DNA of 32,000 nt. It comes from an uncultured bacterium (GTDB lineage: Bacteria; Patescibacteriota; Gracilibacteria; UBA1369; PNNO01). The notes below the pieces were generated by a model. It had not been told where the DNA came from, did no database searches, and was given only the letters and a program-made list of their open reading frames with translations. The translations under genes were made by a program, and so were the position numbers. The stretch is from the NCBI GenBank assembly GCA_963704705.1, contig OY969931.1, forward strand, positions 1,140,001 to 1,172,000. Direction: 5' to 3'. Below are positions 5,967-32,000 of the stretch, piece by piece. The first letter of the stretch is position 1. Every line of letters starts with the position of its first letter.

Positions 5967-6004
5967 ATTACTAATTACTAATTTCTAATTACTAATAACT
6001 AATT
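5967..6004 (+). repeat. r-protein operon spacer repeat, copy 2 (one extra TACTAAT unit), abutting the rpsM ATG
   Basis: ATTACTAATTACTAATTTCTAATTACTAATAACTAATT. The first 22 nt after the leading A are identical to copy 1. Confidence 0.85.
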
Positions 6005-6804: not shown

Positions 6805-6833
6805 ATTACTAATTACTAATATCTAATAACTTA
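6805..6833 (+). repeat. r-protein operon spacer repeat, copy 3, upstream of rpsD
   Basis: ATTACTAATTACTAATATCTAATAACTTA. It has one mismatch to copy 1 over the core TTACTAATTACTAAT(T/A)TCTAATAACT. Confidence 0.85.
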
Positions 6834-6835
6834 TA

Positions 6836-20482: not shown

Positions 20483-20488
20483 TTGGTT

Positions 20489-20494
20489 AATTTA
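20489..20494 (-). promoter_or_regulatory. -10-like TAAATT, 6 nt before the pyrD ATG
   Basis: Read directly. It would let pyrDKEF be expressed independently of the inserted cassette. Confidence 0.35.
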
Positions 20495-20588
20495 GGGTCC
20501 TTCAGAGACGCAAGTCTCTAGCGAGCAAAAACATATCGCGAGCTTAGCATGAGTCCCGCTAAGCGGGATGAATTCCTTTAATATTTAA

Positions 20589-20633
20589 TCATAAAAGTAG
20601 GAGGCTGACTAGGAAAAGATTTAAGTGTTTCAT
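20589..20633 (-). CDS. Possible 14-aa hydrophobic micro-ORF (MKHLNLFLVSLLLL)
   Basis: Hand translation. GGAGGG lies 5 nt upstream of the ATG. The ORF is very short, so it is only tentative. Confidence 0.25.
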   Translation of the reverse strand: MKHLNLFLVSLLLL

Positions 20634-20643
20634 ATTTGCCCTC

Positions 20644-20781
20644 CTACTTGATGATCCCATACACGATGAGTCCCAGAAGCACTATGCAGAAGACTATAAG
20701 TCTGATGTACAGCCATACTGCTTCGGCATCTTCGATCGCCTTGAGTTCCTCAGGTGTCGGGTTCTCAAACATTTTAAACAC
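20644..20781 (-). CDS. 45-aa single-TM micro-protein (GTG start; 42 aa if ATG at 20772)
   Basis: Hand translation (M)FKMFENPTPEELKAIEDAEAVWLYIRLIVFCIVLLGLIVYGIIK. AGGAGG at 20789-20794 lies 7 nt before the GTG. It is below the ORF-track cutoff. Confidence 0.5.
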   Translation of the reverse strand: MFKMFENPTPEELKAIEDAEAVWLYIRLIVFCIVLLGLIVYGIIK

Positions 20782-20818
20782 TTCGGTTCCTCCTTTCTAG
20801 TCAGCCGTTAGCTGACGT

Positions 20819-20962
20819 TCAAGCGAACAAAACAACGAGATCTGCAACTGCAAGCGCAAAAGCACCATGAACCATGTAGTTCGGATTGCTAAGCGCAACA
20901 ATAGCAGCCCCAAATCCGACAACAAATGCTCCAACGCAAAGTGCTGCCATAAGTTTAGACAA
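20819..20962 (-). CDS. 47-aa two-TM micro-protein (TTG start; 43 aa if ATG at 20950)
   Basis: It is the C-terminal part of the track's 106-aa ORF. AGGGGGG lies 5 nt before the TTG. Sequence: (M)SKLMAALCVGAFVVGFGAAIVALSNPNYMVHGAFALAVADLVVLFA. Confidence 0.45.
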   Translation of the reverse strand: MSKLMAALCVGAFVVGFGAAIVALSNPNYMVHGAFALAVADLVVLFA

Positions 20963-20985
20963 TTTTGCCCCCCTTTTTACAATAT

Positions 20986-21102
20986 CTAGCTCAGGTTGAT
21001 GTTTTGGTAGATGCAGAACCCCACGAACAGAGCCTCTGTTCCTACCATGAAAGCAAAAATCAAAACGTCCCAATGCTTTTGGATCCACTTGCGAGTCGTC
21101 AT
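20986..21102 (-). CDS. 38-aa single-TM micro-protein
   Basis: Verified codon by codon as MTTRKWIQKHWDVLIFAFMVGTEALFVGFCIYQNINLS. GGAGGG at 21110-21115 lies 7 nt before the ATG. It is in a different frame from the track's 106-aa ORF. Confidence 0.5.
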   Translation of the reverse strand: MTTRKWIQKHWDVLIFAFMVGTEALFVGFCIYQNINLS

Positions 21103-21122
21103 TCTGTGTCCCTCCGTTTAAC

Positions 21123-21148
21123 GCCAGCCCTGTTTTCAAAGGACCAGC
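21123..21148 (-). promoter_or_regulatory. Conserved 5'-leader hairpin, copy A (minus strand GCTGGTCCT-TTGAAAAC-AGGGCTGGC), upstream of the 38-aa ORF
   Basis: 26-nt element paralogous to 21685-21710. The stem is kept through G-U wobbles that work only on the minus-strand RNA. Confidence 0.55.
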
Positions 21149-21284
21149 ACTAAAACACTTTGTTTGAAGGTTTGTAGCGCAAAAAACCCTTTAAGGTGAG
21201 TATAGTAAAGTATTTAAAATTTTAAAACAAGTTTTTATTTGGGAATTCGGCTGGCGGGGTTGTTGTGCCGAATTGGAAGGATTC

Positions 21285-21527
21285 TCATGACTTTGGCTTT
21301 AGTGCGATGATGAGAAGATAGATCATGAGACCTATCAATCCCAATGCACAAAGCGATGCACATATTCCGAAAATGATCGAACCCAGAGCAAAGGGCTTGC
21401 CTCCGGCCACGAAACGGTCGGCATCACAGCATGAGAGCATGAGAAGAAAGGTGAGAAGCCCGATGCATGCAAACAGCATCAGTGCTTTTTTGATGGGAGA
21501 GGGCTCGTAAGGTTCAAGTTTCTTCAT
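21285..21527 (-). CDS. 80-aa two-TM micro-protein
   Basis: ORF-track entry with hydrophobic segments ALMLFACIGLLTFLLML and LGSIIFGICASLCALGLIGLMIYLLIIAL. The ATG overlaps the stop of the upstream 46-aa ORF (ATGA). AAGGAA lies upstream. Confidence 0.6.
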   Translation of the reverse strand: MKKLEPYEPSPIKKALMLFACIGLLTFLLMLSCCDADRFVAGGKPFALGSIIFGICASLCALGLIGLMIYLLIIALKPKS

Positions 21528-21664
21528 GGTTTCCTTTCATGTAAGTTTACGTTGCAGCTTGGGGCCTTTAAATCTCCTCTTTCGAGTGAAACCGAGAATC
21601 CCAAGGCCAGCATCAGTGCCATCAGCACGAATGCGAACAACACGAACGCGTTACTTCCCTTCAC
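21524..21664 (-). CDS. 46-aa N-terminally hydrophobic micro-protein (GTG start)
   Basis: Verified codon by codon as (M)KGSNAFVLFAFVLMALMLALGFSVSLERGDLKAPSCNVNLHERKP. GGAGGA at 21671-21676 lies 6 nt before the GTG. It is translationally coupled to the 80-aa ORF. Confidence 0.5.
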   Translation of the reverse strand: MKGSNAFVLFAFVLMALMLALGFSVSLERGDLKAPSCNVNLHERKP

Positions 21665-21684
21665 TTTTTGTCCTCCAATTTTCC

Positions 21685-21710
21685 GCCAGCCTGATTTTCA
21701 AAGGTCTGGC
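21685..21710 (-). promoter_or_regulatory. Conserved 5'-leader hairpin, copy B (minus strand GCCAGACCT-TTGAAAATC-AGGCTGGC), upstream of the 46-aa ORF
   Basis: It has the same position relative to the SD/start as copy A. Confidence 0.55.
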
Positions 21711-21782
21711 TAAATCTGCTTGTTTTGCGATTCTAACCTAATCCTTTGGAAAAGAATTAAAGCACAGGGTAAACAAATTTGC

Positions 21783-21809
21783 AAATAGTCAAATTTTCCC
21801 CGGGGAAAA
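21783..21809. repeat. 27-nt exact repeat AAATAGTCAAATTTTCCCCGGGGAAAA, copy 1, abutting the pyrC stop codon; likely the pyrBC terminator
   Basis: It contains the 16-bp perfect palindrome TTTTCCCCGGGGAAAA. On the minus strand this is followed by TTTGACTATTT. It is identical to 29052-29078. Confidence 0.9.
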
Positions 21810-24090: not shown

Positions 24091-24999
24091 ATGTCAGAAA
24101 AATTAATTTTAAATAAACCTAATAAAGCAATTGATTGTATGAAAAGATGGATGGCAATGGATTTTGAACAAATGTCCGACACTGATCATTTTGCTGCATT
24201 CTATGGTTATTGCGAAATGTTAGCTGAAGAACTTGAATCAACACAAGGTATTGATTTAAGTATTATAAAAAATAAATTAAATAAAATGCTGGGTACCTAT
24301 AAAGAATTAATGGACATACGTTACCCTGATGCTATGTCAGGATTAGATTCCAGTTATTCTCATTTTACTCCATTGGAAAGGATTTCAATGCGAAACGAGC
24401 CTATGCTTCTTGAAATTAGTATGAATCAGTTAATGATTGAATTCAAAGAAATTGCTGAAAGACTCCTTGAAATGATTGAAGATGATGAATCCCCTGACAA
24501 AGTATATGATTTCAAAATTCTGGGAGATGATGTTGAGCAACAACTGGAAAGTATTGTAGGAGAAGTTGAATCATTATCAACCATTCCTGATGATGTTGAA
24601 ATGGACAGACTTATTTTTAGAAATTTATACGAGCATACAAGTATTCTTTTACAGCTTATAATTGAAAGAGGTAAATTAATCAGCCTATCACAAGAAGATA
24701 CTGATAAATTCATAGGCATGATAACTGCTATAGAAGAGGTTTTATTTGATGCTGAAATTGATCAAAACCGGCTTAAAGATGGCTACGATGAAATGGCTAA
24801 AGTAGCGCAAACTTTTCTGAATCGAATAAAAGTAACTCCTGAAGAACTTGAAGCAAATCAGACAGAAAGGGACGAATTTAATGATATTGCAGTAGGAAGC
24901 ACTTTGGGCGCGGTAGTCGAAGGAGTACGTGAAAAACTTATGGGCGCTTTGGTATTAATTAAAGGTGATAGACCTAAAGACCCATCCCAAAGTAATTAA
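24091..24999 (+). CDS. Orphan 302-aa highly acidic helical protein
   Basis: Clean ORF with host-like composition. No motif was recognised. Its 3' end overlaps the ugd 3' end by 26 nt (convergent). Confidence 0.6.
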   Translation: MSEKLILNKPNKAIDCMKRWMAMDFEQMSDTDHFAAFYGYCEMLAEELESTQGIDLSIIKNKLNKMLGTYKELMDIRYPDAMSGLDSSYSHFTPLERISMRNEPMLLEISMNQLMIEFKEIAERLLEMIEDDESPDKVYDFKILGDDVEQQLESIVGEVESLSTIPDDVEMDRLIFRNLYEHTSILLQLIIERGKLISLSQEDTDKFIGMITAIEEVLFDAEIDQNRLKDGYDEMAKVAQTFLNRIKVTPEELEANQTERDEFNDIAVGSTLGAVVEGVREKLMGALVLIKGDRPKDPSQSN

Positions 25000-26230: not shown

Positions 26231-27304
26231 ATGATGAAGAAAGCATTTTTAGTCCTTGAGGACGGCACAAAATTAGAAGGAACTTCTTTTGGAGCAGATA
26301 CTGATTCTGCGGGAGAGGTAGTTTTTAATACAGGAATGACGGGGTATCCTGAGAGCTTAACTGATCCATCTTATAAGGGCCAGATACTTACTTTCACTTA
26401 TCCGCTTATTGGCAACTATGGCGTGCCCGGAGACGAGAAAGATGAATTTAAAATCCTTAAAAATTTCGAAAGCGGACAAATCCAGGTTAAAGGACTTGTA
26501 GTCAGCGAATACTGCGAAAAACCAAGCCACTGGAACAGCAAAAAAACACTCGGCCAATGGCTGAAAGAGCAAAAAATCCCTGCAATAAGCGGAATCGACA
26601 CAAGGGCTCTCACGCAAAAACTTCGCGAAAAAGGAACAATGCTTGGAAAAATAATGCGTGATCCATCAAAAGAACTCGCATTCTACAACCCTGACCTTGA
26701 AAATGTTGTTGCAGAAGTTAGCTGTAAAAAACCAATCGAATATAAGGCAGGCAGAAAAAAAGTCGTTTTAATTGATTGCGGTGCAAAAAACAATATTGTC
26801 CGAAGTTTGCTGGCCCGAAATTTAACAGTAATAAAAGTGCCATGGAACTATGATTTTATTGAAAAAGGATTGAAATTTGACGGGGTGTTTATTTCTAACG
26901 GTCCCGGAGACCCTGCGGTTGTAAAAGAGACTCACGAAATAATTAAAAAATGCTTAAAATCAGACAAACCCATAATGGGAATCTGCCTTGGAAATCAAAT
27001 AATGGCAATTGCTGCCGGTGGTCAGACTTATAAATTAAAATACGGACACAGAGCGCAAAATCAGCCTTGCATAGATGTTAATACCGGACGCTGTTACATT
27101 ACTTCGCAAAACCATGGGTTTGCTGTAAAAGCGAAAACACTTCCTAAAGGTTTTGAACCTTTATTTATTAATGCAAACGATAAAACAGTTGAAGGAATCA
27201 AACATACACGAAAACCTTTTATGGCAGTGCAATTCCACCCCGAAGCAACACCGGGACCAAACGACACAAATTACCTTTTTGATGAATTTGCTGGAAAACT
27301 TTAA
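26231..27304 (+). CDS. carA: Carbamoyl-phosphate synthase small (glutaminase) subunit
   Basis: Class I GATase triad context GICLGNQ, HGF and QFHPE. The CPSase small-chain N-domain has TGMTGYPESLTDPSYKGQILTFTYPLIGNYG. Confidence 0.95.
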   Translation: MMKKAFLVLEDGTKLEGTSFGADTDSAGEVVFNTGMTGYPESLTDPSYKGQILTFTYPLIGNYGVPGDEKDEFKILKNFESGQIQVKGLVVSEYCEKPSHWNSKKTLGQWLKEQKIPAISGIDTRALTQKLREKGTMLGKIMRDPSKELAFYNPDLENVVAEVSCKKPIEYKAGRKKVVLIDCGAKNNIVRSLLARNLTVIKVPWNYDFIEKGLKFDGVFISNGPGDPAVVKETHEIIKKCLKSDKPIMGICLGNQIMAIAAGGQTYKLKYGHRAQNQPCIDVNTGRCYITSQNHGFAVKAKTLPKGFEPLFINANDKTVEGIKHTRKPFMAVQFHPEATPGPNDTNYLFDEFAGKL

Positions 27305-27894
27305 AGCAGGGTTCGGGTTTTTTTGATATATTCTGGATATTGTTTTGGAAAAACTGCATTAAGAATTTCTTCTTCAACCTTCATTCGAAGGATTACCAAG
27401 GGAATTACAAGTATTAAAAACAGTAAAATACTGCCCTTTAAAAGCATTAAACCGGTAGCTAAAATAGCTAATATCAAAGCGCCATATTGGGGATATCTAA
27501 CTTTACCGTAAGGGCCTGATTTAATTAAAAGTTTTTTATCGTGACTATATGTTCTATCCCAACTGCAATTAGAACTTATCGCTATCCTCGCTCTTATATA
27601 AATAACCTGCGCAATTAAAAAAATTATAAACCCAAGTCTCACAAAATAAGGTTTTGTAATACTGGTAAGATCATCAAACCCGGGAATTATAAACTGGTAC
27701 GAAACAAAAAATGCAAGTAAGAGATACGCTAAAATCAAAAATCTAAGCACCCATTTTTCCTTATTTGTAAGAGGATAATTAGCCATATTATAAATACCTC
27801 CACCGCATCGATGCACCTTGATTTTTGTAATCGAATAAGTGGTTGCCATTACGGCCCATAAAATAACCACAGCTGTCCAGGCAATATCTATCAT
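27301..27894 (-). CDS. ICMT/PEMT-family membrane methyltransferase-like protein
   Basis: Multi-TM protein with LIKSGPYGKVRYPQYGALIL and a C-terminal EEEILNAVFPKQYPEYIKKT. These resemble the isoprenylcysteine carboxyl / phospholipid methyltransferase signature (..TxGPYxxVRHPxYxG..EExxL..FGxxYxxY). Confidence 0.78.
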   Translation of the reverse strand: MIDIAWTAVVILWAVMATTYSITKIKVHRCGGGIYNMANYPLTNKEKWVLRFLILAYLLLAFFVSYQFIIPGFDDLTSITKPYFVRLGFIIFLIAQVIYIRARIAISSNCSWDRTYSHDKKLLIKSGPYGKVRYPQYGALILAILATGLMLLKGSILLFLILVIPLVILRMKVEEEILNAVFPKQYPEYIKKTRTLL

Positions 27895-27900
27895 GACATG

Positions 27901-27909
27901 ATAATATCA
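27901..27909 (-). promoter_or_regulatory. Extended -10 TGaTATTAT, 6 nt before the ATG of the ICMT-like gene
   Basis: Read directly. It lies between the ncRNA terminator and the ORF. Confidence 0.45.
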
Positions 27910-27932
27910 CGAATAGTCTGGGGTAGCGAAAC

Positions 27933-27959
27933 AAAAAAACCCGCCACAAGTGACGGGTT
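27933..27959 (-). terminator. Rho-independent terminator (minus strand AACCCGTCAC-TT-GTGGCGGGTT + T7)
   Basis: The stem has about 9 bp including one G-U and is followed by seven U. It works only on the minus strand. It sits upstream of the next minus-strand gene, so it ends a separate transcript. Confidence 0.7.
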
Positions 27960-28380
27960 AAATCTTATCAACTGTCTAATTAAAGAAGTTCAAGATTTGT
28001 TTTTGTTTTAAACGTGACGAGCGCCATACTTTGCTTAAGCTTCGGAGTGAATTTAAAGTCTTTCCAGGGACTGTCCGTTTGATGCGGTTATCTACAGAGG
28101 CAATAAAGCGCTCTGGAAACCACCGGACTAAGGGGCCTTTCTAAGGCATGGGCCGATTAAGTTGTCGTCTTTTCGGCCATCGCTTCAGCAGAGAAGGAGA
28201 GAGGTTGAAACAATTTCGAGGCTTTTCTAGGGCGTGTACATTTTTTTGATGTAAGGGCTCGAGTGGTCATTAGTGACCGTACGTTTCAACACCTCATCTT
28301 TTTCTGCTTTTTATTTTTGATTTTTTAAGGGTCGATTTGATTTCTGTTTTTGTGTTTTTTTGTTTTTGATTTTTGAAATC
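27933..28380 (-). ncRNA. Candidate structured RNA of unknown family (~450 nt): A-tract-rich 5' part plus a GC-richer ~290-nt core
   Basis: It is bounded by a consensus promoter (28386-28414) and an intrinsic terminator (27933-27959), both on the minus strand. Stops occur in all six frames. The core (about 28015-28300) is visibly GC-richer than its surroundings. Long-range complementary pairs include GAGGTGTTGAAAC/GTTTCAACCTC and GAGCGC/GCGCTC, with several local hairpins. Confidence 0.5.
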
Positions 28381-28385
28381 ATGTC

Positions 28386-28414
28386 ATTGTATGAAATTGA
28401 ACGAGATTTGTCAA
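28386..28414 (-). promoter_or_regulatory. Near-perfect sigma70-type promoter TTGACA-N17-TACAAT
   Basis: The hexamers and the 17-nt spacer were counted base by base. It fires leftward into the non-coding region. Confidence 0.7.
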
Positions 28415-28671
28415 AAATATAGGTAGGACATGTGTGGGAAATATGTTTTAGTTTTTTGAGTACAAGCTGACTTAGATGGCTTGGAAAAGGATGTTGGCGC
28501 GATTGCAGGCCTCTATATTCAAGCTGTATTTTTATCTAATTTTAATTTTTGGATGGAGTGCTATTTAGGTGAGTATCCGTACACCATTTATCTCAAAAAG
28601 TCCAGTTAAAATGCTGGAAATTGCTTTGCAATTTTAGTATTATTTAAGTGCGAATATTAACAAATACAAAT

Positions 28672-29469
28672 ATGACTGATAAAGAGTTATTTAAATTATG
28701 TCAGGAGTATGGCGCAAAAGCACGCATGTGGAAGAACAAATTTATTGCCTTGCTTCCGGAGGTGTATAAAAGGCGATTGTATAAAAAGCGCGGTTATGGA
28801 TCGATTTTTGAGTTTGCTGCAAAGCTTGGAGGAGTTAGTAAAAATGTAGTTGAAGATGTTTTGCGATTGGATGTGCAATTTGAAGATAAACCAAAACTTA
28901 AAGCTTTAATTCCAGAAATTGGTGTGAGCAAGTTAAAAACTATTGCTTCTGTTGCAAGCATTGAAACAGAAAATCTTTGGGCTAAAAAAATCCAAACAAT
29001 GTCCAGGGCAGCAATAGAAACAGAAATTAGAGATCAAAAAAATAATGTAGAAAATAGTCAAATTTTCCCCGGGGAAAATTTTGAAACATTCACTGCGAAG
29101 CTTTCTCCAAGAACAATCCAAAGACTAAAAATCATTAAAGTTAAAATGGGGCAAGGCACAACATGGGAAGAAGTTTTTTGTAAGCTTGCGGGCCTTGCGA
29201 CCCCTGAGCCAAAACGCGAATACAAGCAGAGGCCAAGCAAATCGCGGGCCGTGCCTGCCAAACAAAAACGAGAACTTCCTGAAATTTGCGAAATTCCCGG
29301 CTGCAACAAGCCGGCCGAAGAAATCCATCATAAAAAACCATGGGCAATATTTAAAAAACACGACAAGCTTAAAGCTCTGTGCAAAGCCCATCATGAGCTT
29401 GAACATCAGGGCGACACAGTGATCGACAAAAAATATAGGGCCTATAAATGGCAGGCCGCATTATTATGA
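28672..29469 (+). CDS. HNH endonuclease with DUF222-like helical N-terminal domain
   Basis: C-terminal HNH/zinc motif CEIPGCNKPAEEIHHKKPW...LCKAHHELEH. The N-terminal pattern (YKRRLYKKRGYGSIFEFAAKLGGVSKNVVEDVLRL...LIPEIGVSKLKTI) resembles DUF222-HNH proteins. The track start at 28648 is GTG, so the ATG at 28672 is preferred. Confidence 0.85.
   Translation: MTDKELFKLCQEYGAKARMWKNKFIALLPEVYKRRLYKKRGYGSIFEFAAKLGGVSKNVVEDVLRLDVQFEDKPKLKALIPEIGVSKLKTIASVASIETENLWAKKIQTMSRAAIETEIRDQKNNVENSQIFPGENFETFTAKLSPRTIQRLKIIKVKMGQGTTWEEVFCKLAGLATPEPKREYKQRPSKSRAVPAKQKRELPEICEIPGCNKPAEEIHHKKPWAIFKKHDKLKALCKAHHELEHQGDTVIDKKYRAYKWQAALL
29052..29078. repeat. 27-nt exact repeat, copy 2, inside the HNH ORF (encodes NSQIFPGE)
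   Basis: Identical to 21783-21809. The palindrome is followed by TTTTG on the plus strand, giving an intragenic terminator-like hairpin. Confidence 0.9.
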
Positions 29470-29500
29470 CGTGGCACTTGCTACTGTAAGCCCGATCCCC

Positions 29501-29506
29501 TATTAT
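29501..29506 (+). promoter_or_regulatory. -10-like TATTAT, 6 nt before the dinG ATG
   Basis: Read directly as TATTAT-gacttc-ATG. Confidence 0.4.
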
Positions 29507-29512
29507 GACTTC

Positions 29513-32000
29513 ATGTACATCTCACTCGACATAGAAACAACCGGACTTTCACCTGAGCGCGACTCGATTATTGAGATCGGGGCCGTGAAGTTTGACGAGA
29601 AAGGTGTTCATGAAAAATATAAGACGTTCATTCATTATGATGAGCCAATTCCGGAGCTAGTTACTCATATTACGGGAATTACAAATGAGGATTTGGAAGG
29701 CGCGCCGTCACTTGAACAGATTGCTGATTCGCTTTATGAGTTCGTGGGTGATTTGCCGATTCTGGGGCACAATGTAAATTTTGATATGGATTTTTTGAAG
29801 TCAAAAGGTTTTAACTTTAGCAATAAGCTGTTTGACAGTTTGCCGCTTGCGCAGATTTTAAGGCCGGGGCTTCCAACATACAGCCTTGATATGCTTACCC
29901 AACATTTTAATATAAAGCATGAATCAAAACATAGGGCGCAGGATGACGCAGAAGCAACAGCCTTGCTTTTTAATATGATGGTTAAAGATATTAGTGATAT
30001 CGATGCACAAACTTTGGATAGAATCAAAGATATTTTAAACAGAAGCAATTGGGCTCTTAAAGAAATTTTTCTGGATGTGGAATCGGACAAAGATATGGAA
30101 GTGCCAAAAAAACCTGAGGCTGAAGAGGAATCTGACATGCTGGAATTTGATAAAGAAAAAATTCTGGATCAGTTTAAAGATAACGGGCTGGTTAAGGATT
30201 TTGAAGAGCGCGGTCCGCAAATTGAAATGGCTGAAAAAATTACAGATGCATTTAAAGATCATAAAAATTTAATAATTGAGGCGGGCACAGGCACAGGTAA
30301 GTCGTTGGCGTATTTAATTCCATCTATTTATAAAGCTCTGAGCGATCAGACAACGGTTGTAATCGCGACGCACACAAAAAATCTGCAGGATCAGTTGTAC
30401 AAAAAAGACCTGATTACAGCGCAAAAAGCAGTAGGTGCCAAATTTAAAACCGCAGTACTTAAAGGAAGGCAAAACTATTTGTCTGCCGAACGTTTGGCCC
30501 AGTTTATGAAAAAGTCGTTTTTTTACGACCACGAAGTTACCATGTTGATTAAAATTTTAACGTGGCTTCCGCACACTGAAAACGGTGAAGTGGACGAGCT
30601 GGCTTTGCAGGGGCGTGAACATTTTTCATGGCTTGATGTTTGTTGTGACGGGATTAAATGTCCGCATAATAAACCTGAATACGCAAACAAATGTTATCTT
30701 TATCGTGCAAGACAAAAGGCTGCGAAAGCTGACCTGATTATTACAAATCACTCACTTGTTTTAACAGATACTATAGGCCCTACACAAATTTTACCTGAGT
30801 ATAAATATCTGGTTGTGGATGAAGCACATCATCTTGAATCTGAGGCAACAAACGCATTAACAATCACTTTTACGCTCGATGGAATAAACAGGCCACTTGA
30901 TAATCTTAAAGATCTGCTAAAACGCGAACCTGAATTTGTTGAGAAAATTGATGAGCTGCAAAGCAAAGTTGAAATGTTTTTTGGATTTTTGGGAATCTGT
31001 TATGAAAAGTTCATTAAGTACATAAATAATATTCAAAATTTAACGGTTAGTGATTATATTCGCGAATCTATTGAATGGGAAAGGCTAAAAAGCTCAACGG
31101 AATCAGTGGTTGTTAAAGCTGAAAATTTATATAAGAGTTTGCATGAATTTGCCGAGAACCATGACAATGAAGAATTCGCGAACTATGTTCAGTTCGAAAT
31201 GGAATCGATTGCGGAAATTGCCCGAAAACTGGGATTTGTGATTTTGGAGGACGGGGTGAGTGATTTTGGCCAGAGTATTGTCTGGATATTTGCGAAATAT
31301 GATGGTTCTCTTGGTATTAATTGTGCGCCTTTGCAGGTGCGTGAACATTTAAAAGGCACTTTGCTGCACGATAAAGAAAGCATAATTTTAACTTCAGCCA
31401 CTTTAACAGTTGATCATAAATTCGACTATATAAAGTATCAGCTTGGGCTTGATGATACTTTTGAAGGTGTAATGCTGGCTTCGCCATTTAAATATGAAGA
31501 TCAGGTTGAGGTTATTTTCTATAAAAACATGAAAGCGCCTGCCACCCCTGGTTATTTTGATGAAACCTGCGAAATAATTAAACGCGAAGCAATTGAAAAT
31601 GGCGGTAAAATGCTGGTTTTGTTCACAAGTAAAAAAGCCATTGAAGCTACATATTTAAAACTTGCGCCTGAACTTAAACTAAAAAATATTACTATTCTTG
31701 CACAGAATATGAGCGGAGGCAGAAATAAAATAATTGAACTTTTTAAGCAGGATCCAGATAATTGCGTGATTTTTGGAACAAACAGTTTTTGGGAAGGAAT
31801 AGACATAAAAGGCGGTGCACTAAACACTGTTATTATTCAAAAACTGCCGTTTGACCCGCCGGACGACCCTGTTCATTCGGCGAGGGGCAACTTATTTGAT
31901 AATTCATTTTTCGATTATCAGGTGCCGCGCGCGATTTTAAGGTTTAAGCAGGGCTTTGGCAGACTTATTCGTTCAACAAAAGACAGCGGACGTGTGATTG
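29513..32000 (+). CDS. dinG: DinG-family ATP-dependent helicase with N-terminal DEDDh (DnaQ-like) 3'-5' exonuclease domain; 3' end off-window
   Basis: Hand-translated open frame not listed in the track because it has no stop in the window. The Exo I motif is MYISLDIETTGLSPERDSIIEIGAV, followed by HNVNFDMDFL and HRAQDDAEA. Helicase Walker A is IIEAGTGTGKSLAYL, and the DEAH box is VVDEAHHLE. A Cys cluster VCCDGIKCPHNKPEYANKC is also present. Confidence 0.9.
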   Translation, partial: MYISLDIETTGLSPERDSIIEIGAVKFDEKGVHEKYKTFIHYDEPIPELVTHITGITNEDLEGAPSLEQIADSLYEFVGDLPILGHNVNFDMDFLKSKGFNFSNKLFDSLPLAQILRPGLPTYSLDMLTQHFNIKHESKHRAQDDAEATALLFNMMVKDISDIDAQTLDRIKDILNRSNWALKEIFLDVESDKDMEVPKKPEAEEESDMLEFDKEKILDQFKDNGLVKDFEERGPQIEMAEKITDAFKDHKNLIIEAGTGTGKSLAYLIPSIYKALSDQTTVVIATHTKNLQDQLYKKDLITAQKAVGAKFKTAVLKGRQNYLSAERLAQFMKKSFFYDHEVTMLIKILTWLPHTENGEVDELALQGREHFSWLDVCCDGIKCPHNKPEYANKCYLYRARQKAAKADLIITNHSLVLTDTIGPTQILPEYKYLVVDEAHHLESEATNALTITFTLDGINRPLDNLKDLLKREPEFVEKIDELQSKVEMFFGFLGICYEKFIKYINNIQNLTVSDYIRESIEWERLKSSTESVVVKAENLYKSLHEFAENHDNEEFANYVQFEMESIAEIARKLGFVILEDGVSDFGQSIVWIFAKYDGSLGINCAPLQVREHLKGTLLHDKESIILTSATLTVDHKFDYIKYQLGLDDTFEGVMLASPFKYEDQVEVIFYKNMKAPATPGYFDETCEIIKREAIENGGKMLVLFTSKKAIEATYLKLAPELKLKNITILAQNMSGGRNKIIELFKQDPDNCVIFGTNSFWEGIDIKGGALNTVIIQKLPFDPPDDPVHSARGNLFDNSFFDYQVPRAILRFKQGFGRLIRSTKDSGRVI

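Follow-up and report, generated by a model that had tools for sequence, protein, structure and literature searches.

The window analysed here is a 32,000-nucleotide (nt) piece of a chromosome from the candidate phyla radiation (CPR; Peregrinibacteria, Peribacteria-type), with a GC content of ~35-40% and genes that include ribosomal-protein genes and the pyrimidine genes carA, pyrB and a dihydroorotase-like gene. Between positions 27895 and 28671, flanked by an ICMT-like gene (27301-27894, minus strand) and a gene for an HNH-motif protein, lies an intergenic gap that holds only short open reading frames (ORFs). Here, we describe a predicted transcript of ~445-448 nt from the minus strand of this gap, which is very probably an independent structured noncoding RNA (ncRNA) gene of a new, previously uncatalogued family. 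An initial annotation of this DNA had proposed an independent, novel structured RNA of ~450 nt, and our analysis agrees: promoter, body and terminator are conserved as a unit in ten sequences, the body carries compensatory changes, and the RNA belongs to no Rfam family. All RNA-bearing loci share the gene order dinG - HNH - RNA - ICMT - carA.

The transcription unit and its homologs

The RNA gene is defined as a transcription unit by its own predicted near-consensus sigma-70 promoter and predicted intrinsic terminator. The promoter, TTGACA-17-TACAAT, matches the consensus at 11 of 12 positions and ranks first among eight promoter-like sites in 27200-29600. It recurs in all ten sequences as TTGACA, a 17-nt spacer and TA[CT][AG]AT behind a conserved TGTCCTAyCTATATTT block, and sequence conservation decays upstream of about -50. 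At the other end, every homolog carries a GC hairpin followed by U6-7, the stem of which varies in sequence with compensation (three pairs changed on both sides, helix 10); in the window, 38 nt separate this terminator from the ATG (27894) of the ICMT-like gene. We take the minus strand as the sense strand because of the orientation of promoter and terminator, and because the G.U pairs of the fold (about 36 cells in the pair table by our own tally, one pair being invariant) would be A.C mismatches on the opposite strand. Family members are ~370-450 nt long. Most of these elements had already been picked out in the initial annotation, and they stand: the minus-strand promoter at 28414-28386, the 9-bp GC-rich hairpin with U7 at 27959-27933, a conserved extended -10 box of the downstream gene's own (27909-27901), a core richer in GC than its flanks (0.42-0.53 over 28000-28250 against 0.23-0.27 over the A-rich 28300-28450), and the non-coding character of the gap.

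Behind the promoter, each of the ten sequences has a leader of 50-87 nt that is 62-77% A and 2-6% G and contains 3-7 CAAAA(A) units; the differences in leader length are not multiples of three. No ORF of at least 25 codons is positionally conserved among the homologs, and two homologs have none of that length on the sense strand. Because no ORF is conserved and indels are not multiples of three, we consider the RNA non-coding. The same two points led us to reject a small-protein mRNA, the only frame kept being one of three codons with a varying peptide.

Homologs came from contigs that encode relatives of the ICMT-like protein (52-82% identity, annotated as Patescibacteria), which were fetched and aligned (alignments A1, A2) and yielded eight distinct species-level sequences with a clear RNA homolog upstream of the ICMT-like gene. 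A scan of the GTDB species genomes with the exact 19-mer CTCTCCTTCTCTGCTGAAG returned eight loci, three of them true, and added one new sequence (L018; L numbers denote loci), while an 18-mer of the CU-rich block returned 38 loci from JGI metagenomes, two of them true by nhmmer (L048 and L055, mutually identical). In the IMG/VR viral scan the invariant CU-rich block had no match and two other blocks gave chance or coding matches only, and blastn with the RNA against phages gave no match. Since these pattern scans and viral searches brought no further true matches, the family could not be extended beyond one clade. It comprises ten distinct sequences, the window's and nine from related genomes that are conserved in both sequence and structure, all on Peribacteria-type Patescibacteria contigs; at the DNA level the RNA matches sequences from Candidatus Peribacteria, Candidatus Peregrinibacteria and a Patescibacteria single-amplified genome. 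The family is thus narrowly distributed, so far only in the Peribacteria/Peregrinibacteria clade.

Common to all ten members are the promoter, the A-rich leader, a folded core, a 3' hairpin with an invariant stem, and the terminator. Core identity to the window is 74-86%, compared with 63-77% nucleotide identity for the adjacent ICMT gene and 47-58% at its third codon positions, which are saturated, and 188 of 318 ungapped columns are invariant. The strongest blocks are a 15-mer (28221-28235) and the 29-nt GUUUCAACyUCUCUCCUUCUCUGCUGAAG (~28183-28211), which has one variable position; both, along with several invariant 9-11-mers, are kept across species whose neighbouring proteins are ~55% identical. 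Purifying selection on the RNA gene thus looks stronger than on the neighbouring proteins. The features of the window are as follows.

28386-28431, minus strand: promoter, with -35 TTGACA (28414-28409), 17-nt spacer, -10 TACAAT (28391-28386) and upstream block TGTCCTAyCTATATTT
28309-28380, minus strand: A-rich 5' leader, unstructured, with (U)CAAAAA direct repeats; inferred start site ~28380
28283-28308, minus strand: 5' strand of helix P1, purine-rich AGCAGAAAAAGAUGAGGUGUUGAAAC, containing AUG-N6-UGA (28297-28286); 94-100% of cells paired
28212-28282, minus strand: P1 apical region, variable in length and content, always holding the invariant 15-mer ACGCCCUAGAAAAGC (28221-28235, 10/10)
28265-28278, minus strand: hairpin GGUCACUAAUGACC, an insertion in the P1 apical region found in the window only and absent from the 9 homologs
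28187-28211, minus strand: 3' strand of P1, pyrimidine-rich, within the 29-nt near-invariant block; served as search pattern
28182-28189, minus strand: 5' strand GCUGAAGC of P2, a tentative long-range helix, pairing with 28033-28040 (RNAalifold)
28151-28178, minus strand: P3 hairpin GGCCG...CGGCC with conserved loop AAGAyGACAACUU; 3 double-sided pairs (helix 4), 92.5% paired
28135-28147, minus strand: variable hairpin GCCUU-AGA-AAGGC, in the window, L001, L004 and L007 (L007: GCCAU/AUGGC), deleted in the other six
28073-28128, minus strand: P5 long hairpin (GUCCG GUGGUU UC CAGA ... UCUG .. AACCGC AUCAAA CGGAC), with a conserved A-rich 3' bulge
28043-28066, minus strand: P6 hairpin with conserved loop GACUU(G/U)AAA; helices 7-8
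28033-28040, minus strand: 3' strand GCUUAAGC of P2, a perfect 8-nt palindrome inside the invariant AAGCUUAAG
27998-28032, minus strand: linker containing the A-rich UAAAACAAAAA and a CGUCAyG motif that is conserved; no helix predicted
27961-27997, minus strand: 3' hairpin AAUCUUGAAC...GUUGAUAAGAUU, invariant stem and variable loop
27933-27959, minus strand: intrinsic terminator, GC-rich 9-bp stem (5 GC), 4-nt loop, U7
27901-27909, minus strand: extended -10 TGaTATTAT of the ICMT-like gene, outside the RNA and 6 nt before the ATG; conserved in close relatives
28672-29469, plus strand: HNH gene with ParB-like helix-turn-helix (HTH), multicopy, divergent; most likely start ATG 28672, 265 amino acids (aa)

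The consensus fold

The consensus fold was computed with RNAalifold on the ten-sequence core alignment (A6), with pairs counted per cell. It is multi-domain (P1, P3, P5, P6 and the 3' hairpin) and spans 330-380 nt, and the transcript as a whole appears to consist of three modules: the A-rich leader of 50-87 nt, a core of ~280 nt that holds P1 and at least P3, P5 and P6 together with invariant loops and joining segments, and a 3' module made of the A-rich linker, the invariant-stem hairpin and the terminator. In this fold 95.3% of cells are paired, compared with 31-43% when the partners are slid by 1-3 columns; 14 pairs have changed on both sides (31 cells), and none of 500 shuffles attains the observed values. 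The window's 448-nt transcript has a minimum free energy of -105.5 kcal/mol, compared with -84.6 +/- 6.0 for its shuffles (z = -3.5).

The pairs changed on both sides fall mainly in P3, P5, P6 and the terminator. P5 (helices 5-6) has five pairs changed on both sides and is 91-100% paired; in P6, pair 267-284 is CG in four sequences, AU in three and UA in two, and pair 269-280 is UA in four, AU in three and GC in two; P3 reaches single-sequence probabilities of 0.64-1.0 in eight of the ten. The 3' hairpin (helix 9) is 100% paired, with nine of its ten pairs never varying and a probability of 0.87-0.93 in nine of ten sequences. P1 is a long imperfect helix between 28283-28308 and 28187-28211, with a purine-rich 5' and a pyrimidine-rich 3' strand, for which two registers fit equally well, so that its register is ambiguous. 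P2 is likewise 100% paired, yet with only two one-sided changes, and closure of the multi-branch architecture by P2 is provisional, as a feature of the model. An automated scan for further covarying helices found none. We looked by eye on A6 at three further contacts, namely a CUGGAAA/UUUCCAG pseudoknot, a P3 loop paired to CGUCAyG and a P6 loop paired to GUUUCAAC, and set all three aside for lack of consistent compensation.

The alignment sorts the pairings that the initial annotation had drawn from the window. The GAGGTGTTGAAAC/GTTTCAACCTC complementarity is part of the long conserved helix P1, the ATGGCCGA/TCGGCCCAT hairpin is P3 and covaries, and AAATCTT/AAGATTT forms the 3' hairpin, the stem of which is invariant. 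The GCCTT-AGA-AAGGC hairpin is real in four of the ten sequences and optional, being deleted from the other six. The remaining two fail: GGTCA-CTAA-TGACC is an insertion that the nine homologs lack, and GAGCGC...GCGCTC is not maintained, being broken in L004, L011 and others in our reading of A6.

Known RNA families and neighbouring genes

Searches with Rfam 15 at gathering score gave no match in the window and none in 14 related loci (107 kb); at E<=10, with three homologs included, the matches were terminator or promoter artefacts only and differed between homologs. ARAGORN found no tRNA and no tmRNA in the window, and our literature search turned up no account of a comparable RNA from CPR bacteria or Peregrinibacteria. 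The first impression that the RNA matches neither RNase P RNA, tmRNA, signal recognition particle (SRP) RNA, 6S RNA nor a riboswitch therefore holds under model-based searches as well.

Could it still be a housekeeping RNA of one of these kinds (RNase P RNA, tmRNA, 6S or SRP RNA), so divergent in this CPR lineage that the Rfam models do not recognise it? Its core of ~330-380 nt lies in the range of RNase P RNA and tmRNA, its sequence conservation is extreme in a genome of 1.37 Mb, and 28033-28075 contains short motifs that we presume to be RNase P-like (ACAG..CC..GCUUA and GAC.GUCC, with GAAGC/GCUUA resembling P4). These motifs, however, are not conserved across homologs and have no model support; the window's CR-I-like GGAAAG reads GGCAUG, GGCGUG or GGUAGG in homologs; and there is no Rfam match of substance at E<=10 for the three homologs. 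The 5' and 3' ends are unpaired, with no closing helix of the P1/P2 type, and we judge a divergent housekeeping RNA to be very improbable. Taken individually, tmRNA, RNase P RNA and 6S RNA were rejected as well. For tmRNA, both a tRNA-like domain and a CCA end are missing, the 3' end being the terminator hairpin and the 5' end A-rich and unpaired. RNase P RNA is of similar size, but the RNA here has no covariance-model match, no end-closing helix in the consensus fold and no recognisable specificity domain. Compared with 6S RNA, the fold is multi-domain rather than a rod with a central bubble and measures 330-380 nt against ~180 nt, and neither the 6S nor the 6S-Flavo model matches.

A conserved promoter and terminator around a covarying body are the general marks of a stand-alone, trans-acting structured ncRNA gene, and the predicted elements here form that pattern. 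In kind, the RNA most resembles the orphan large structured bacterial RNAs OLE, raiA, ROOL and GOLLD, which are likewise stand-alone, several hundred nucleotides long, multi-helix, lineage-restricted and marked by long invariant stretches, and which share the signature by which this RNA was flagged, an intergenic region of raised GC content in an AT-rich genome. As with OLE and oapA, the RNA lies directly upstream of, and co-oriented with, a gene of a predicted membrane-enzyme family (Pfam PEMT/ICMT). It differs from these RNAs in lacking an Rfam match, in its CPR host and in its long A-rich leader, and it is smaller than OLE, ROOL and GOLLD; with respect to their oligomerisation and membrane association, the RNA described here is known from its sequence alone.

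The position of the RNA relative to the ICMT-like gene bears on whether it might instead be a cis-regulatory leader, a riboswitch or attenuator in which a ligand or protein bound to the core decides between termination at 27959-27933 and read-through. The initial annotation had offered a long attenuator leader as its alternative, and the arrangement invites it: in the window and all nine homolog loci the RNA directly precedes the ICMT-like gene on the same strand, with a strong terminator between core and gene. In every lineage, however, distant homologs included, a promoter-like (-10-like) element stands between the RNA terminator and the gene, and in the window this extended -10 ends so close to the ATG that the ICMT-like mRNA is probably leaderless. 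The spacer from terminator to gene varies from 38 nt in the window to >200 nt in L011 and L015, and the ICMT protein of L010 is identical to that of L011 although its gene lies downstream of HU and topA, with neither the RNA nor an HNH gene. No conserved antiterminator that would pair with the terminator stem, itself variable, is visible in A6, although ten sequences give this little power, and a 50-87-nt leader, a 280-nt core and an additional invariant hairpin are atypical for a riboswitch. On account of the gene's separate promoter, the variable spacer and the missing RNA in L010, we regard the RNA as independent of the ICMT-like gene; a riboswitch or attenuator is not supported, and a leader function is the least probable of the alternatives that we considered.

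The sequence that L010 and L011 share starts immediately past the terminator position. In one sub-lineage (L011:3792-4000, L015:3793-4000), the stretch from the RNA terminator to the ICMT gene contains a ~200-nt element that bears GC-rich palindromes (GGGGGCACCAAGGTTCCCCC...); in L010 (3735-4000) this element comes directly after the HU gene, in place of the RNA. By its sequence it appears to mark either the junction of a recombination event or a small mobile element or repeat.

On the other side of the RNA, an HNH homolog adjoins it wherever the flank suffices (the window, L002, L007-9, L011, L013, L014, L015, L018, L048 and L055), divergently in most loci and co-directionally in L014, L015 and L018; we found no flanking inverted repeats to explain these orientation flips, which occur in place and between close relatives. 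The protein carries a C-terminal CxxC...HH...CxxHH motif, and the window copy has no significant Pfam or NCBIfam match. Its AlphaFold model is confident (pLDDT 90), with the DNA-binding domain of Spo0J/ParB-parS as its top, though weak, fold match, and some family members have weak Pfam matches to HTH_ParB and RecA_dep_nuc; fold and Pfam searches gave no RuvC or RNA-binding domain. The family is multicopy, with at least six paralogs on the window's own contig and 618 matching proteins in total, several of them named 'HNH endonuclease signature motif containing protein' by NCBI. Several metagenome assemblies break at or within ~200 nt of the HNH gene start.

A functional tie between the RNA and this protein, as its cofactor or guide, its regulator or a part of the same mobile element, would fit their adjacency in every locus with enough flank, which persists despite the flips in L014, L015 and L018. 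Against such a tie, the multicopy family includes paralog loci that have no RNA homolog (L062, L063 and L064), the protein looks like a DNA binder, and HNH identity is 33-53%, far below that of the RNA. Moreover, the RNA loci are all syntenic relatives, so that the adjacency may be inherited or reflect repeated selfish insertion into one spacer. We consider a functional tie unlikely, and in our reading the HNH protein would be a selfish DNA-binding nuclease, its gene seemingly given to repeated insertion and now occupying the dinG-RNA spacer, rather than an RNA-guided enzyme. The co-occurrence raised in the initial annotation thus holds in part for both neighbours: every flanked RNA locus has an HNH gene and all RNA loci have the ICMT gene, whereas three HNH paralog loci and the ICMT gene of L010 occur without the RNA.

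HEARO and the omega RNAs of IscB/TnpB offer a related comparison, being ~300-nt structured RNAs beside an HNH-motif gene in a mobile or multicopy-like region, as here. The RNA of the window differs in having its own promoter and terminator and in the HNH paralogs that lack it, and Rfam gives no HEARO match. This candidate was rejected on the neighbouring 265-aa protein, which has a ParB-like HTH and HNH but no RuvC, and on the varying orientation of its gene relative to the RNA.

Possible modes of action

We propose that the RNA would be stable, probably abundant and active in trans. The segments that never vary, both single-stranded blocks and helix sequences, would be the surfaces by which a conserved partner (a protein, or a second copy of the RNA) recognises it, and the A-rich tracts would form a platform for single-strand binding; the invariant blocks are consistent with such a partner-binding role. 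The RNA could then work as a ribonucleoprotein scaffold or as a sequestering (sponge) RNA, in the logic of 6S, CrcZ, OLE or raiA RNAs. Like 6S, CrcZ/CrcY and RsmZ/CsrB, it is flanked by a strong promoter of constitutive appearance and an intrinsic terminator and would act in trans, and the CAAAAA units of its leader (3-7 in each) resemble the A-rich Hfq/Crc-binding motifs of CrcZ. It lacks the rod and central bubble of 6S and the GGA hairpins of RsmZ/CsrB, its structured core is much more complex and better conserved than in sponge RNAs, and its sole CrcZ match is at chance level (8.8 bits). Drawn by analogy, the scaffold or sponge mechanism is the simplest model that we see, though a tentative one; the explanation as a whole, in which the far firmer ncRNA gene is weighed together with this mechanism, we hold to be somewhat probable.

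Several points weigh against this interpretation. The promoter and terminator are consensus matches, and the mechanism is transferred from other RNAs with a partner protein that is putative. The ten distinct sequences all come from one clade, and their kinship inflates the shuffle statistics. P1, P2 and the 3' hairpin are almost invariant, with one-sided, wobble-compatible changes only and no pair changed on both sides; P2, which defines the multi-branch architecture, has single-sequence pair probabilities of 0.00-0.29; and the fold of homolog L011 has a z-score of only -1.3. The Rfam scans covered the window and 14 related loci, and standard RNase P, tmRNA, SRP and 6S genes of this organism would have to lie elsewhere in the 1.37-Mb genome.

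An alternative starts from translation. Among the window's ORFs of at least 100 aa (1-29469), 29 of 31 have no Shine-Dalgarno (SD)-like motif in the upstream region (257-286, 5975-6004 and 6806-6835 are examples of the regions inspected), and the remaining two show a weak AAGG and nothing more. In the 0.3-7.5 kb region, several ORFs, those of the predicted ribosomal-protein cluster among them, are preceded by repeated ACTAAT/TCTAAT (TTACTAATTTCTAATAACTAATT). The scarcity of SD motifs and these repeats suggest SD-independent initiation with a lineage-specific upstream signal. Under SD-independent initiation, as in Bacteroidetes, an unstructured A-rich region is the expected initiation signal.

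The RNA has such a region in its leader, followed directly, in the 5' strand of P1, by a three-codon frame, AUG-N6-UGA (28297-28286, minus strand), that is present in ten of ten sequences without indels, and in P1 an SD-like purine strand (GAGGUG; in L007 and L048 GGAGGUGA) is paired to a pyrimidine strand that resembles an anti-SD. The RNA might therefore be an mRNA mimic or a dual-function RNA, its leader and mini-ORF recruiting ribosomes or S1, with translation opening P1 or the RNA titrating initiation factors. Set against this, AUG and UGA sit in a helix that is constrained in sequence anyway, the start codon is paired in P1, the peptide varies (MRC, MRR, MGS), and ribosome binding is predicted from sequence alone. 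We regard an mRNA mimic as quite improbable.

A broader possibility, which we regard as doubtful, is that this is a new large, ornate and essential CPR RNA that either self-assembles through palindromes or mimics an mRNA through its leader and mini-ORF. The invariant GCUUAAGC and CUAG are both palindromic and could mediate self-association, and assembly into higher-order particles has recently been described for ROOL, GOLLD, OLE and raiA.

Under the reading that we prefer, a new trans-acting structured ncRNA, the near-consensus promoter and the purifying selection imply an important, probably abundant component that current annotation lacks. Large structured RNAs of a new class are seldom found, and those found earlier, OLE, GOLLD, ROOL, raiA and HEARO/omega RNA, opened up new biochemistry time and again. 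The RNA biology of CPR bacteria, whose genomes are tiny (~1.4 Mb), is poorly understood, and in an organism that apparently lacks SD motifs, an mRNA-like A-rich RNA could inform on translation initiation. The alignment and fold can now be used for model-based searches.

Elsewhere in the window, an 843-codon open frame on the plus strand (29471-32000) encodes a DinG-like helicase with an N-terminal exonuclease domain and is syntenic in relatives; because it runs past the window end, it is missing from ORF lists and leaves 2.5 kb seemingly empty. A 1.3-kb stretch without a long ORF (20483-21809, minus strand) holds a series of small hydrophobic ORFs of 45, 106, 80 and 46 aa, possibly small membrane proteins. 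Between pyrB and a UDP-glucose dehydrogenase gene, a 302-aa ORF (24091-24999, plus strand) has no Pfam or NCBIfam match and occupies a variable slot, which holds 302 aa in L001 and L002, is empty in L004 and L005, and contains ORFs of 157-179 aa in more distant relatives.

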